From IMG/VR virus record IMGVR_UViG_3300044691_000229, positions 3,659-67,658 of that record: 64,000 bases of DNA. One strand, written 5' to 3'. The translations under genes were made by a program, and so were the position numbers. Source of the DNA: a virus. A model generated the notes under the pieces. The model did no database searches. It had not been told where the DNA came from and was given only the letters and a program-made list of their open reading frames with translations. This document shows positions 42,457-57,086 of the stretch, piece by piece. Numbering within the stretch: the stretch's first letter is position 1; every line of letters starts with the position of its first letter.

Positions 42457-43938
42457 TTATGCGCTACAGAATTCAGTGACGACGACGAGACCAGCCGCGC
42501 CGGCGCCGCCGGCCGCAGTCCCTCCACCACTAAACGATTGCCCGGCTCCGCCACCAGAACCAAACCCGCTTGCAGCACCACCAGCGGCAGAGGTGAGAGA
42601 GTATATGGAGATGCCACCGCTACCGAACATAGAAGATGCGCCGGCTCCGCCGACACCGGACGTATTACCGCCGGCAATGACGCAACCACTTGATCCTTGA
42701 GTTCCAGGGCCCGCAACATCGCCGGTACCCGCTACGCCGCCAGCACCACCAGACGCAGCTGGGTTGCTCGATCCGTTGCTACCTCCGCCACCGCTGCCGC
42801 CTTTGCCAATGCAAAGAGACCCAACAGACGTATCACCGCCCGCACCGCCGGCATTATTGCCCGCCGCGCCAGCAGCGCCAGCAGCGCCGATTGTCACGAC
42901 CTGAGAAGCGCCGACAAGTGCAGCTGTCGACGACTTTCTGGAATACCCTCCAGCACCTCCTCCGCCCGCAACGGAGGCAGTGTTTGTGGCCGGACTAGCG
43001 GTACCACCGCCACCACCGCCACCACCGAAGCACTCTATGGTGCACGAGACCATCTTCGTATTAGGTGTGTATGTCCCTGATACGGAGAACTTTTGGTACC
43101 TTACCACGCCGCCGACCGTCCCTGTTGCGCCAGTAGCTCCGGTCGGACCAGTGTTTCCCGTCGGGCCAGTTGCTCCAGCCGATCCTGCGGCGCCAGTCTG
43201 GCCAGTTACGCCCTGGATACCCTGCGCACCGGTCGGTCCAGTCACTCCCTGGATGCCTTGTGCTCCCGTCGGGCCCGCCACTCCCTGGATGCCTTGTGCT
43301 CCAGTGGGGCCAATTACGCCCTGAATACCCTGAGCACCAGTTGATCCTGTAGCGCCTGTTGCACCGCCTACTCCAGCGTTTCCGGTAGGCCCAGTTGCGC
43401 CCAGAACACCTGCCACTCCGCTAGGTCCGGTCGGCCCTGTCGCACCAGGCGAACCAACTCCTCCCGCAGGGCCTTGTCCTCCAGTCGGGCCTCCGGCGCC
43501 GGTAGGACCTGTCGCGCCAGCGCCAGTCGGGCCAGTACCTGTTGGACCTGTTGCGCCAGTGACCCCTGTAGCTCCATTCACGCCTCCTGGCCCGGTCGGA
43601 CCCAAGATAGAGAGCATCAACCCGACGTTGCCGGGGTTGGTAGTCGATCCGCCGTTGGTGACGATCGTAAAATTAACGTGATCGTTCCGAATTTCCCCGC
43701 GCGACGTCGACTGCACGAAGATCGCATTGAACACCGCGTTCAGCGCGCCGTTACTTACAAAATAATAAAATCCCCGCCTGGTGTAGTCGATCAGGATGCC
43801 ATCGCACACCGCGGAGCCGCTATCGATCGTCGCGGTCACCCCGGTGAGGGCTTCCCCATCGCCAAGCCAGCTGTCGCAATCCGCATGGTAGCGGATGCGA
43901 TCGCCGACGGACTGCACATAGGAGTTGAGCAACGGCAT
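42457..43938 (-). CDS. Collagen-like (Gly-X-Thr) tail fibre with Gly-rich C-terminal domain
   Basis: Long [12 protein letters not shown] repeats; GGGGGGG domain. Confidence 0.85.
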
Positions 43939-43941
43939 GGG

Positions 43942-44067
43942 TTACTTCTTCGTTGGCACATAGATGACGCGATCCTGCGCCGGGATCATCACCACGCGAG
44001 AGCACGCCGGGATCATCACCGTGCGGCTCTGTGGGGGAATTACAATGACGATCGCGGCGTTGCTCAT
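43942..44067 (-). CDS. 41-aa protein of 9-residue RxVxIPxxx repeats, not in the ORF track
   Basis: MSNAAIVIVIPPQSRTVMIPACSRVVMIPAQDRVIYVPTKK; RBS GAGG; fills the gap. Confidence 0.6.
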   Translation of the reverse strand: MSNAAIVIVIPPQSRTVMIPACSRVVMIPAQDRVIYVPTKK

Positions 44068-44074
44068 GGTGCCC

Positions 44075-54476: not shown

Positions 54477-54488
54477 CTGTGCCCCCTA

Positions 54489-55007
54489 TTAACCAGCGGA
54501 CACGGTAAGCACACCGCTATTGACCCAGACCTGTCCCGCGACGTGCGGATCAGAGGTTGGCGGGATGATCACGACGCCGACGATGCCGGACGGACCGGTC
54601 GGGCCTGTTGCCCCGGTGGCACCTACCGCCCCAGTCGGACCGGTCACGCCGGTGCCCGTCGGGCCGGTATTACCGGTCACACCGGGAGTGGCGCCAGTCG
54701 CGCCAAGAGGACCTGCTGGGCCAGTCTGGCCTTGACCAGTTGCGCCGGTCGCTCCGGTTACACCAGCGGCACCTTGCGAGCCCTGCGGACCCTGCGGGCC
54801 TGTAATACCAAAAATTGGACCGGTCGGGCCGGTATTACCAGAAGGACCAGCAGGGCCGGTCGCGCCAGTGGATGAACCTGTCGGACCAGCCGGGCCAGTC
54901 ACACCCGTCGGGCCGCCTACAGAGCCGTTATTGATGACGTCGACAACCTGCTTTAGCACGTTGCCCAACATATTGCGGTCGTAATTGCGGCTCGAAAGAA
55001 TGCTCAT
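54489..55007 (-). CDS. Collagen-like GPT-repeat protein
   Basis: ~110 aa Gly-X-Thr; [23 protein letters not shown]. Confidence 0.85.
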
Positions 55008-55097
55008 CGCGGTCCCCTGTCAGGTGTCCCTGGCCTCGGCGAAATGCCGAACATATTTCACGGGTAGGGGAGAACCCTTACCAATTACTTTACGTCC

Positions 55098-57086
55098 TCA
55101 AAAAGGTCCCGGAAGTGCCGCATACATTGAGTTGAACAGGGCGGCGAAGGTCGCGTCCGTCGCGCTCTTTTTCAGGTATGAGATATTGCCCGGCGTGCCG
55201 GGAACGTAGGTATTCAAGCCGGTGCTTGAATTGACCGTCATCGCGCTCTTCAGGCCGGCCAATTGCAGACCAGAAGACGGCCCGCGCGCCGCATAAAGTA
55301 CACCGAGTTGACCCCAGCATGGACGCGGCGATGTGCCGCCGTTCGTAACCCAATCGTGGAAAGCCTGTTGCACGGGATTAGTGGCAGACGCCGTCGTGCT
55401 CGCGGGTGCTGCGGTGATAGTGGTCCCCAACTCGTCACCACATATGATGACTTGCGTCGGCCAGTTTGCGATAACGTCGGCGCTGTTCGCAGCCGGGCCG
55501 TTCGCAAAATTAAAATCTGCCGATCCAGCGTTCGGCATGAACCCGGCAACCCAAACAAGCAGCGCATTTTTTGCGATAATAAGCGCGGCCCCGCTGGGAA
55601 GACCATCGCCACCCGCGTTTGCCGCCGATGTCAATAGCCCGTCGAACGTCGTGGCAAAGCCTGTGCCGACCAAGATTGGGATGCTTCCATCCGGTACAGA
55701 AGCAAGGAGCGCCCTTAGTTTTTGCACGCCGTCCGTGAAGCTGGCGCGTCCGAGATTGGCACCGAACGTAGCCGAAATGTCGGCTGTATAGAAACTGTTA
55801 GATGGACCGCCTGCAGGGACGGCACCCTGCCATGCTCCAACAAACGCCGTGGTTTTCGTCGGCTGCATATACCGGGTGATCGCGTAGCAGGTATCGGCGC
55901 CCCGGTCGTTGATCGAGTCGGAGACGATGCCGAGCAGGTTAAATTCGCCGCGCAGGTCCAGGGCGTTTGCGAGGGCCACGTCCCCGGCATCGTCGATATC
56001 GCTTGCGATGTCGGTCGAAAGAATGACGTTTCGAACACCACTCGGAAGCGACGGCTTCGTGCGGCCCAGCGAGAGACTGGCATGTAGACCCGGACGTTCG
56101 GCGCTGAATATAGTTGCAGGTAGCAGCGACGCGACGGTCGCAATCCCCGTATTGTAGATCGCCAGTTCCTCGATGTTGCCATTGAAGAAGTTTGAAACGC
56201 CGCCGATGCTCCCGATTTGCGGGACGATCGAGTTAATGATCGTGTTGGCGCCAAGCGTGTTCGTGGTGATCGTTACGGTCTCGGGGATGCCGTTGACCCA
56301 CATCTGAACGCCGGCACCTACGCCACTGCCGTCGTAGGAGATGACGACATGCCAGTTGCTACCATTTGTAAGGTCCGTGGAGCCGTGACAGTCGAGAAAC
56401 TTAGCGCCACTTACACTGTTCATCAATGTGAAGCTTAGAAACTCTTTGGCCCCACCAGCAGTGAGGCACTGCACGCCAATGCGGATACCTGGAGTCGTGA
56501 AAACGTTGTTGAACTTGGAGAAGATCGTATCGACGTTGTTATTTGTCGTGCGCGCGAAATTTGGCCGAATGATTGCCTCAACGGTGAACGGCTGTGTGCG
56601 ATCATAGTTGTGAAAGAACGTTTCGCCCGCTGCACCCAGCGATGCCGTGCCCGAGGTTCCGTTGAATAGCGCCGAAGATTGTCCTGCGAGCAGAGCAGTC
56701 GAACCCAGCGTGACGCCGGCCACGATCGTCGCTGGTACGCCAGACGGAGATGCATCGGCCAATGTCGGCGACGCAACCGCATCGGTGCCGCGCCAGTACC
56801 CAACCAGGGAGGTGATCGACAAAACGTCCGCCACATAGAGCGGGTTGCCACCTGCAAAGCCAGAAATAAACACATTCTTGTGGCCGCCGGTCAGGCCGGT
56901 CGGGCCAATGTTGTAGACCTTCTCCAGCACACCAGATGGACCGGTCGCACCTGTAGCCTGCAGCCACTGCGCAATATTTCCAGTCGGCCCAGTGTAGCCG
57001 CTCAAAATGTTCACACCCTTGATCGTTCCGGTCGGGCCGGTCGGACCCCCGAGCACAACAACTGTTTTGCGCGGATCAGCGGTCAT
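55098..57086 (-). CDS. Virion-associated protein: short GPT segment + LamG/ConA-like domain + nucleoside-hydrolase-like domain
   Basis: LVGYW, FNGTS, FTVEA, WHVV.SYDG, WVNG, F.GNIEELAIYN; then VILSTDIASDIDDAG. Confidence 0.65.
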   Translation of the reverse strand: MTADPRKTVVVLGGPTGPTGTIKGVNILSGYTGPTGNIAQWLQATGATGPSGVLEKVYNIGPTGLTGGHKNVFISGFAGGNPLYVADVLSITSLVGYWRGTDAVASPTLADASPSGVPATIVAGVTLGSTALLAGQSSALFNGTSGTASLGAAGETFFHNYDRTQPFTVEAIIRPNFARTTNNNVDTIFSKFNNVFTTPGIRIGVQCLTAGGAKEFLSFTLMNSVSGAKFLDCHGSTDLTNGSNWHVVISYDGSGVGAGVQMWVNGIPETVTITTNTLGANTIINSIVPQIGSIGGVSNFFNGNIEELAIYNTGIATVASLLPATIFSAERPGLHASLSLGRTKPSLPSGVRNVILSTDIASDIDDAGDVALANALDLRGEFNLLGIVSDSINDRGADTCYAITRYMQPTKTTAFVGAWQGAVPAGGPSNSFYTADISATFGANLGRASFTDGVQKLRALLASVPDGSIPILVGTGFATTFDGLLTSAANAGGDGLPSGAALIIAKNALLVWVAGFMPNAGSADFNFANGPAANSADVIANWPTQVIICGDELGTTITAAPASTTASATNPVQQAFHDWVTNGGTSPRPCWGQLGVLYAARGPSSGLQLAGLKSAMTVNSSTGLNTYVPGTPGNISYLKKSATDATFAALFNSMYAALPGPF

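Follow-up and report, generated by a model that had tools for sequence, protein, structure and literature searches.

A 64,000-nucleotide stretch of viral DNA (the window; 64,000 of the 67,658 bases of the single contig of an uncultured phage, IMG/VR record IMGVR_UViG_3300044691_000229) carries a cassette in which genes for three predicted carbohydrate-modifying enzymes follow genes with Gly-Pro-Thr (GPT) motifs. Read along the minus strand from portal to scaffold, the cassette consists of three GPT-bearing genes, a 682-residue glycosyltransferase fusion, an HtrL-like protein of ∼220 residues and a methyltransferase of 186 residues. The cassette is probably a late-expressed O-glycosylation module that would decorate the phage's own Thr-rich collagen-like fibres before assembly. 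As judged from sequence comparisons, the enzymes most likely put methylated sugars on these fibres, because the pairing of enzymes and collagens recurs in unrelated phages and in bacteria. All genes named in an earlier reading of the letters alone (the sequence-only reading) were recovered in place on the minus strand, either between the portal gene and the scaffold and capsid genes or in the tail block. The genes and domains concerned are the following.

55098-57086, minus strand: 662-residue protein; Laminin_G_3 (LamG, PF13385) domain, E = 1.1e-7; 4 GPT, no collagen run
54489-55007, minus strand: 172-residue collagen-like protein; Pfam Collagen (PF01391), E = 1.9e-10, 40.8 bits
53769-54476, minus strand: 235-residue collagen-like paralogue; 33 triplets, longest run 7; tail-fibre/collagen-like PHROG matches at ∼3e-7
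51649-53697, minus strand: 682-residue fusion of GT2, TPR and C-terminal GH130-fold propeller
53173..53697, minus strand: GT2 (GT-A) catalytic domain of the fusion, about residues 1-175; PF00535, E = 2.7e-9, residues 9-100
52708..53175, minus strand: TPR domain of the fusion, about residues 175-330; TPR_17, E = 2.4e-7, and other TPR families (residues ∼185-225)
51652..52671, minus strand: GH130-fold five-bladed propeller of the fusion, residues 343-682; AlphaFold model with Foldseek, and hhalign
51000..51662, minus strand: HtrL_YibB-family protein with GT-A fold, ∼220 residues; the open reading frame (ORF) as listed runs to 51728 (242 residues)
50443-51003, minus strand: S-adenosylmethionine (SAM)-dependent O-methyltransferase of the MycE/TylE sugar type, 186 residues; phrog_21658 methyltransferase, E = 1.6e-9
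44857-45690, minus strand: 277-residue collagen-like protein of the tail block; 39 triplets, 12 GPT
42457-43938, minus strand: 493-residue probable tail fibre; Collagen, E = 1.1e-7, 31.9 bits; many tail-fibre PHROGs

The catalytic identity of the fusion is clearest at its N-terminus, where the GT2 domain passes the Pfam gathering score (37.6 bits against a cut-off of 23.3). A family profile built from 18 diverse N-terminal halves found GmaR (8.8e-23), SunS (1.8e-22) and a 7msk chain (2.1e-16) as the nearest solved catalytic relatives in the PDB, the next GT2 enzyme being chondroitin synthase at 1e-7. GmaR O-GlcNAcylates flagellin and SunS S-glycosylates a peptide; the kin of the GT2 domain thus act on polypeptides. 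An LNMIVKNE strand and a D96-A97-D98 motif are invariant in the 18 diverse sequences, and from the alignment the latter is the putative DxD motif that would bind the metal and the nucleotide sugar. The fusion was rejected as a SunS equivalog, since it scores 41.2 bits on TIGR04195 (NCBIfam) against a cut-off of 350 and over residues 3-79 only; it is a relative and not a member of that family. The TPR domain that follows matches OGT and consensus TPR chains in the PDB.

The C-terminal 340 residues of the fusion gave no match in Pfam or PDB sequence searches, and the domain was identified by three other results, from its predicted structure, from hhalign and from tblastn. The AlphaFold model (pLDDT 89.8, pTM 0.89) is a five-bladed propeller, and the chains that Foldseek listed at E < 1e-6, which extend to rank 38, are all GH130-family members, with E values of 1e-9 to 1e-6 and TM scores of 0.47-0.59. 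These chains comprise beta-1,2- and beta-1,4-mannoside phosphorylases, a mannoside synthase, the GDP-mannose-dependent MPT mannosyltransferases of Leishmania and putative glycosidases from structural genomics. Alignment of a broadened propeller family by hhalign to three true GH130 proteins from bacterial genomes gave a probability of 95.1% (E = 3.4e-8) over 126 columns in the last blades; a narrower alignment reached only 66%. GH130 Pfam matches were obtained for 4 of 20 relatives (best E = 0.001), and a Bradyrhizobium fusion and a standalone cyanophage homologue scored 19.1 and 21.4 bits, both under the cut-off of 26 bits. In tblastn searches the propeller is tied to cyanophage proteins labelled 'MGP protein' and 'beta-mannosyltransferase'. 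GxEDxR and EKNW motifs are conserved in the propeller; GxEDxR is invariant in the family alignment and parallels a GIEDxR invariant in the three true GH130 proteins, a parallel of motif order only in a region outside the hhalign match. As modelled, the C-terminal domain of the fusion has the GH130 fold. Taken over both ends of the fusion, the catalytic signatures (D-A-D of GT2, GxEDxR and EKNW of the propeller) are invariant across 18-24 diverse sequences.

The fusion has many relatives, at least 1158 among the 8000 candidates scored. The best 120 are all full length (647-717 residues, with a coverage of 98% or more), and many come from contigs 57-69 kb long. Standalone homologues of 360-400 residues occur in other loci. 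At three of the loci compared (designated by L numbers; here L025, L026 and L027) the fusion region is read in two frames, as residues 5-245 and 257-679, so that either the gene is split there into GT2 and TPR-propeller parts or a frameshift is needed.

The HtrL-like protein was recognised through its family. The window protein has no sequence match in Pfam (even with E up to 10), NCBIfam, PHROG or the PDB, and a six-frame search of the genome with PF09612 gave no match, as it gave none in control genomes. Its homologues make up a large unnamed family (408 proteins in one search, 1166 representative clusters in another), whose members begin at a Met that gives ∼220 residues and places the probable start at 51662. 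A 36-member alignment of this family aligned by hhalign to HtrL of E. coli K-12 with a probability of 98.1% (E = 9e-14, 220 columns); a narrow alignment reached 41% only. PF09612 is matched by 10 of the 36 members (best E = 4.8e-19), and the bacterial neighbour in L120 scores 32.9 bits against a cut-off of 24.1. The predicted structure (pLDDT 96) has a GT-A fold, and its top fold matches are GT6 transferases and the capsid glycosyltransferase A64R of PBCV-1. The protein is a divergent member of HtrL_YibB with a GT-A fold. HtrL-like domains were also found fused to GT2, GT25, DUF4422 and FkbM methyltransferase domains.

The last enzyme of the cassette matches the macrolide-sugar methyltransferases MycE (3ssm, 9.4e-17) and TylE (8ia9, 5.5e-16) in the PDB. 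Its residues 6-149 align to MycE 186-327 (144 residues of the catalytic domain), and the alignment takes in the SAM-binding VLEIG, the DDxxH and the ED motifs. With 186 residues against the 397-419 of MycE and TylE, the window enzyme is the catalytic domain alone and lacks their N-terminal domain. In 13 viral loci of the clade described below, the slot that follows the HtrL-like gene is taken by a methyltransferase of this type; elsewhere it holds an SDR epimerase/dehydratase with a UDP-galactopyranose mutase (L054), an SDR with a sugar C-methyltransferase (L018), a different O-methyltransferase (L013), or an SDR with DUF4422 (L014). Judged by gene content, such a changing slot is the pattern of a glycan-building island with a variable product. 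The domains are also joined physically. In L015 and L020 the GT2-TPR-propeller bears a C-terminal Methyltransf_11 domain, and in 29 of 80 bacterial loci tblastn found a region 26-35% identical to the window methyltransferase, mostly where the enzyme gene is a fusion of ∼1250 residues, as in rhizobia. The Mesorhizobium enzyme also holds a Gly_transf_sug/Caps_synth domain, and the Bradyrhizobium enzyme (1895 residues) adds GT2, Anp1, GDSL and GT25 domains. These fusion architectures link the three window enzymes in one pathway. The profile, hhalign and Foldseek results bear out the enzyme assignments of the sequence-only reading, namely a GT2-TPR-propeller, an HtrL-like protein and a sugar-type SAM O-methyltransferase.

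For the candidate acceptors, window ORFs of 80 residues or more were screened for a minimum of 3 GPT or 8 G-X-Y triplets, and exactly five ORFs qualified. The sequence-only reading had counted all five as collagen proteins, which is an overcount: two reach the Pfam threshold, two are collagen-like below it, and the 662-residue protein is, on its sequence, not a collagen. The 172-residue protein has 36 G-X-Y triplets in runs of at least 3 (longest 9), with Thr at Y in 19 of the 36. In the alignment of its family, a conserved N-terminus of 28 residues and a C-terminus of 25 residues surround ∼115 residues of interrupted G-X-Thr repeats. Thr at Y is 83% conserved, compared with 36% for the remaining Y residues and 49% at X, which fits glycosylation and also fits helix stability. 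With the low-complexity filter on, tblastn found no match of this collagen in cultured phages. The 235-residue protein has no Pfam Collagen match; it aligns with the 172-residue family and has the N- and C-terminal motifs in common with it, and its gene lies directly upstream of the fusion gene, ending 71 bp before it. By position alone, the two genes beside the portal would encode head or neck fibres.

The two tail-block genes code for larger proteins. In the 277-residue protein the Collagen score (25.4 bits) lies under the cut-off of 27.2, and the C-terminus is a virion-structural domain (phrog_35197, 3.1e-28; phrog_10330 'virion structural protein', 1.4e-21). The 493-residue protein is composed of an N-terminal adaptor-binding-like domain, a collagen run of 46 triplets and a Gly-rich C-terminal domain, with weak matches to Gly_rich_2 (4.7e-5, just under the cut-off) and to the Gp77 fibre-tail adaptor (0.0068). 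The helices are short (at most 9 triplets) and interrupted in all but this protein, and Thr is the dominant Y-position residue in the triplets of the window collagen-like proteins. An ORF after the 493-residue gene (42144-42719, minus strand) has an internal Met start from which the first ∼30 residues resemble, by eye, the N-terminus of the 493-residue protein; it may encode a second, short protein for the docking site used by the Gp77 adaptor-like part of the fibre.

The 662-residue protein has a different organisation. Its N-terminal ∼85 residues are followed by the LamG domain and by a nucleoside-hydrolase-like C-terminal domain, and four isolated three-triplet GxTGP(T/S)G motifs, ∼16 residues apart, lie within the first 70 residues. 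Only 10 homologues were found, with LamG in 7 and PF01156 IU_nuc_hydro in 4. In relatives, the ∼85-residue module with the GPTG motifs is a separate ORF directly after the portal gene. The closest relative (L002) has unrelated ORFs of 464 and 225 residues in the same slot, which from gene content looks like a variable 'cargo' position.

The cassette is embedded in the late genes. The right half of the window is a minus-strand late operon that runs from the terminase and portal genes through the cassette region to the scaffold-position gene, the capsid gene and the head-tail and tail genes, with the following features around the cassette.

59900-61360, minus strand: large terminase gene
57083-59410, minus strand: portal gene, 775 residues, the upstream border of the cassette; phrog_332, 6.4e-57, also portal PHROGs 1216 and 156
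49445..50382, minus strand: four small ORFs of 72-82 residues between the methyltransferase and the scaffold-position gene (from the ORF list)
48292-49434, minus strand: scaffold-position gene, 380 residues; matches phrog_13678, function unknown
47227-48237, minus strand: major capsid gene; phrog_267 major head protein, 3.1e-46; 66% identity to a Rhizobium phage gene

The scaffold-position and capsid genes (47227..49434, minus strand) form the downstream border, and the former is called scaffold because it precedes the capsid gene and is 33% identical to the Rhizobium phage gene ahead of the capsid. Neighbouring genes are tightly joined. The portal stop overlaps the start of the 662-residue gene (ATGA), the end of the fusion gene overlaps the HtrL-like start, and the HtrL-like stop overlaps the ATG of the methyltransferase (ATGA, read from the sequence); the remaining intergenic gaps in the cassette are 12-90 bp. 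The strongest minus-strand terminator-like hairpin of the region (47207-47174, a 14-bp stem with a T-run) lies directly after the capsid gene. Terminator-like sites inside the cassette are weak, and no strong one occurs before the end of the capsid gene. Because of the overlaps, the short gaps and the lack of a strong terminator, the cassette enzymes are most likely made together with the head proteins, as far as gene layout can tell.

The cassette is conserved in a large clade of metagenomic phages of ∼57-69 kb. Among the 25 viral loci that hold both portal and fusion, 24 have 1-4 collagen-like genes in the interval, most often with a gap of 37-146 bp before the fusion, and this order is kept down to 38-43% glycosyltransferase identity. 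The exception is L017, in which the portal gene is followed by an ORF of 92 residues and then the fusion, and which has no head-block collagen. In 21 of the loci the gene next after the fusion is the HtrL-like one. Across the loci the capsid protein is 80-95% identical while the fusion falls to 38-79%.

Among cultured phages, four Rhizobium phages with genomes of 60.9 kb come nearest; they have replication genes in common with the window, and their capsid, portal and terminase are 66%, 57% and 47% identical. By proteome comparison with one of them, RHph_TM3_14A (57% for the portal), the three enzymes, all five GPT genes and the 260-residue gene between the two tail-block collagens are without a counterpart, and the whole genome contains no GPT collagen ORF. 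Its interval between portal and scaffold holds only three small ORFs, to which the four small ORFs at 49445..50382 correspond by position. This joint absence indicates, from one comparison lineage, that enzymes and collagens come and go together.

The 80 viral loci compared group into 40 clusters at 60% identity, 30 of which have no portal or capsid similarity to the window. In 7 of these 30, the GT2-TPR gene has a G-X-Thr collagen gene directly adjoining it or at a distance of up to ∼1 kb. Collagens are found upstream of the GT2-TPR gene in the L033 group (with signal peptides, 8-90 bp away), the L045 group (691 residues in tail-fibre position, 16 bp) and L038 (984 bp), and downstream of it in L020 and L021 (beginning 9-10 bp away) and L067 (46 bp). 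L049 (8143-17392) presents a methyltransferase homologue (32%), then a 946-residue relative of the GT2-TPR-propeller (26%), then convergent GPT collagen genes. This locus has no portal or capsid similarity and is a compact independent copy of the trio of methyltransferase, fusion and collagen. In the cultured Synechococcus phage DSL-LC02 (L164, 43498-52454), an annotated collagen-like protein lies between tail-fibre genes, divergent from a standalone propeller homologue that is followed by a 717-residue TPR/FkbM methyltransferase/radical-SAM/SPASM protein and a second FkbM methyltransferase. By its gene content, this group may represent a different tailoring chemistry on a collagen-like fibre.

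The pairing also occurs on bacterial chromosomes. A scan of species-representative genomes gave 579 relatives, and among the best 80 loci there was no portal, capsid or terminase match near the homologue. Collagen ORFs are present in 24 of the 80 (Rhizobiales, Burkholderiales, Acidobacteriota, Planctomycetota, Chlamydiota, Myxococcota and Dokdonella). Mesorhizobium and Bradyrhizobium encode giant collagens of 733-1659 residues, with up to 419 triplets and 397 G-x-T, divergently transcribed 1-2 kb from the enzyme. Metagenome-assembled genomes of Burkholderiales and Acidobacteriota combine a collagen with a Tat signal, a full-length fusion and an HtrL-like gene. As a base-rate control, one giant collagen was used as query against five enzyme-bearing bacterial genomes. 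In a 7.2-Mb Mesorhizobium genome, which holds L109, all 31 collagen matches are confined to a single stretch of 16 kb that abuts the enzyme; 12 of 13 matches of a 9.3-Mb Bradyrhizobium genome likewise lie in the region abutting its enzyme, and in each of the other three genomes the best collagen match is the one beside the enzyme. The Mesorhizobium stretch (C1:1408173-1424165) is an array of giant collagen-like ORFs, with open frames of 2783, 1466, 1442 and 1358 residues, which adjoins a 1263-residue multi-glycosyltransferase and a second GT2-TPR gene; no other collagen-like region was found in that genome. The link between enzymes and collagens drawn by the sequence-only reading has the backing of synteny, joint absence, recurrence and domain fusions, and is loosened by GT2-TPR genes that have no collagen neighbour (23 of the 30 clusters, and L017).

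The closest precedent is SgtA of C. difficile, a protein of 358 residues that combines a GT-A domain with TPR and whose gene adjoins bclA3 (PMC7157674). Recombinant SgtA moves N-acetylglucosamine (GlcNAc) from UDP-GlcNAc to Thr of GPT-repeat peptides in vitro, giving beta-O-GlcNAc, and no enzymes that extend the BclA3 glycan were found (PMC7157674). The window fusion has the same order of a GT-A (GT2-type) domain and TPR, and in both systems the enzyme gene adjoins a GPT collagen-like gene. The standalone homologues of 360-400 residues equal SgtA in size, and the first codons of an sgtA primer resemble, by eye only, the invariant N-terminal strand of the family. The differences are that the window enzyme is phage-encoded, lies in a head operon and is fused to a GH130-fold propeller with an HtrL-like protein and an O-methyltransferase beside it, and that the window collagens are short (172-493 residues) with interrupted repeats. 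The analogy to BclA made by the sequence-only reading is stronger than was claimed, given the common GT-A and TPR plan, the GPT collagen neighbour and the O-GlcNAcylation of GPT Thr in vitro.

In Bacillus anthracis, BclA is a Thr-rich GXT collagen-like surface fibre that carries a rhamnose oligosaccharide capped by O-methylated anthrose. The fibre type is the same as here, and a methylated sugar in the glycan there has its parallel in a sugar O-methyltransferase gene here; the rhamnose and anthrose pathway genes are absent from the window cassette. BclA proteins proper have a C-terminal globular domain and an exosporium-targeting N-terminus, and the likeness of the window proteins is limited to the repeat type and the neighbouring enzyme.

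Viruses that glycosylate their own particles offer looser parallels. In mycobacteriophages of the Che8 and Corndog type, phage-encoded glycosyltransferases modify the C-termini of capsid and tail-tube proteins (as cited in PMC12619734). Both systems have phage-encoded glycosyltransferases, with the phage's own structural proteins as acceptors there and as candidate acceptors here; the acceptors there are C-terminal tails, here they would be collagen-like repeats, and the enzyme set is another one. Mimivirus L230 with the collagen-like L71, and PBCV-1 A64R, are virus enzymes that attach sugars to collagen-like or capsid proteins of the virus itself (PMC9614988), and the window HtrL-like protein has A64R among its best fold matches. 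L230 hydroxylates Lys and glucosylates hydroxylysine, a different chemistry and fold, and these are giant viruses of eukaryotes. A computational study predicted hydroxylation and sulfation of bacterial collagen-like proteins by the enzymes of neighbouring genes (PMC2938197). Among the enzymes compared by fold, the GH130 phosphorylases and the Leishmania MPT have the fold of the window propeller, which differs from them in lying under the Pfam threshold and in being fused to a putative protein glycosyltransferase. MycE and TylE have a catalytic domain homologous to the window methyltransferase (E ∼1e-16); they are two-domain enzymes that act on macrolide sugars, whereas the window enzyme has one domain and a protein-bound glycan as its putative substrate. 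We know of no GH130 enzyme that acts on a glycoprotein.

Taken together, the features of the cassette would fit a three-step pathway. The GT2 domain would move the first sugar from a nucleotide sugar onto Thr of the G-X-Thr triplets, with the TPR domain holding the collagen-like polypeptide as, by analogy, SgtA may hold BclA3. The GH130-fold propeller, whose fold is that of beta-mannoside phosphorylases and mannosyltransferases, and the GT-A enzyme of the HtrL family could then lengthen the glycan, and the MycE/TylE-type methyltransferase could O-methylate a sugar as a cap. We infer the collagens as acceptor, the identities of the sugars, the order of the steps and the location of the products on the virion. 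The purposes put forward in the sequence-only reading, triple-helix stability, adhesion or shielding, are likewise conjectural.

Several observations weigh against glycosylation of the phage's own collagens. The solved GT2 relatives act on flagellin or small peptides, and the likeness to SgtA is one of domain plan and gene neighbour. The window propeller lies under the Pfam threshold with no GH130 (PF04041) match, the HtrL-like protein is missed by Pfam, and the HtrL, GT25 and GT2 partner domains are typical of lipopolysaccharide (LPS) pathways. The 24 syntenic loci have a common ancestry and therefore represent one lineage with long retention and not 24 trials. Outside the clade, 23 of the 30 clusters have no collagen gene beside GT2-TPR, as in L017 within it; most of these 23 are multidomain proteins on giant-virus contigs. 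A conservative within-locus control, in which closeness was set against that of a randomly chosen gene in the same short locus, gave 18 observed against 10.8 expected in 24 lineages, a modest excess. The Thr content of collagen ORFs near the enzyme does not differ from that of ORFs far from it (p = 0.66), the far set being mostly tail-block collagens of the same phages, and Thr-rich Y positions are common in prokaryotic collagens, where they stabilise the helix without sugars.

Some of these points would suit enzymes that remodel the host surface, be it LPS, exopolysaccharide or a collagen-like adhesin of the host, during infection or lysogeny, for instance as a block to superinfection, with the collagens as ordinary fibres at a permissive insertion site. 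HtrL is located in the LPS-core cluster of E. coli, and the fusion partners GT25, GT2 and Caps_synth are typical of LPS or capsule pathways. In one study, glycosyltransferases of myophage tail-fibre regions are read as O-chain modifiers (PMC7029224). A sister enzyme lies beside the giant collagens of rhizobial genomes, so that the phage copy could act on a host protein, and a Rhizobium phage relative is annotated with an integrase and att sites. We nevertheless consider host-surface modification unlikely, since the genes are translationally coupled in a late head operon and not placed in a lysogeny or early region, the nearest solved GT2 relatives act on proteins or peptides and not on lipids, and no membrane-anchored Gtr-type component was recognised among the nine module proteins scanned. 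The adjacency to collagen recurs in unrelated genomes, and enzymes and phage collagens are gained and lost together. Glycosylation of DNA was provisionally set aside, as proteins are what the closest solved relatives act on and the location of the genes is the head operon and not the replication region.

The module could also glycosylate other virion proteins (capsid, portal-proximal or tail), with collagens as a minor acceptor or one of several. Such a role would resemble the glycosylated capsid and tail-tube C-termini of mycobacteriophages (as cited in PMC12619734), and would suit the fold match of the HtrL-like protein to A64R, which glycosylates the capsid protein of PBCV-1, the proximity of the cassette to the scaffold and capsid genes, the retention of the enzymes in L017 without head-block collagens, and the GPTG motifs that are scattered in the 662-residue protein outside any collagen helix. 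It is quite unlikely, however, given that the capsid remains 80-95% identical across loci despite a glycosyltransferase at 38-79%, and that outside the clade adjacency recurs to collagen and not to capsid genes. As the capsid is still 66% identical in the enzyme-less relative, no capsid feature visibly tracks the enzymes. It is very improbable that the propeller or the whole fusion is non-catalytic, a lectin or chaperone that folds or trimerises the fibres or binds host glycans while no glycan is added. TPR domains are protein-binding scaffolds, assembly chaperones often follow phage fibre genes, and the GH130-like sequence similarity is weak, with Pfam scores under threshold; yet the catalytic signatures are invariant in 18-24 diverse sequences, and a methyltransferase and the variable sugar-nucleotide enzymes of the relatives would be purposeless without a glycan.

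The origin of the enzymes was approached with a FastTree phylogeny of N-terminal domains (57 of 145 distinct rows). The phage clade (12 rows, support 98) is sister to a clade of Bradyrhizobium, Mesorhizobium and Xanthobacteraceae with a support of 85. No direction of transfer is claimed because the tree has no outgroup root. The tree and the Rhizobium-phage backbone suggest, on sequence relationships, a rhizobial-type host and exchange with it. A wider and doubtful extension of the fibre-glycosylation reading is that GT2-TPR, GH130-fold propeller, HtrL-type enzyme and methyltransferase form an old mobile toolkit for collagen O-glycosylation, common to bacteria, tailed phages, cyanophages and giant viruses. 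In this phage clade, collagen fibres borne on the capsid or neck would receive a coat of methylated glycan, possibly a beta-mannoside, in imitation of the coat on the giant glycosylated collagen-like surface proteins of the rhizobial host, and the propeller would be the first known phosphorylase-type builder of a protein-linked glycan, dependent on a sugar-1-phosphate or a GDP-sugar.

Glycosylated GPT collagens on Firmicute spores, glycosylation of mycobacteriophage virions and glucosylation of collagen by giant viruses are already known. In a literature search that lay outside supplements and most subscription journals, we found no description of phage collagen-like proteins glycosylated by phage enzymes. 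Nor, provisionally, did we find a published cassette that pairs an SgtA-like enzyme, a GH130-fold domain, HtrL and a sugar O-methyltransferase with phage collagen-like structural genes, or its bacterial and cyanophage counterparts. As far as we could find, the only phages documented to glycosylate their particles with enzymes of their own are mycobacteriophages, in which capsid and tail proteins are modified. Glycosylation of the collagen-like fibres, if true, would be a second and chemically different form, in which an SgtA-like enzyme with a fused GH130-fold domain builds O-glycans on collagen-like fibres. It would give a candidate function to HtrL_YibB, to the standalone 'beta-mannosyltransferase' and 'MGP' proteins of cyanophages, and to the GT2-TPR genes of phage tail-fibre regions, usually read as modifiers of the host O-antigen. 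The pairing on the chromosomes of Mesorhizobium and Bradyrhizobium suggests that rhizobial surfaces bear giant glycosylated collagens that have yet to be studied.

Two further observations concern the phage as a whole. No tRNA genes were found in the window, and megablast of 16 kb against cultured phages gave zero matches, so that no near-identical cultured relative was seen in that search. A gene on the plus strand at 21482-24646 encodes a 1054-residue protein that is 31% identical over its full length to a 'putative integrase protein' of a Rhizobium phage. With 1027 residues the latter is unusually long for an integrase, for which reason the label may be wrong; the identity of this gene bears on whether the phage is temperate.

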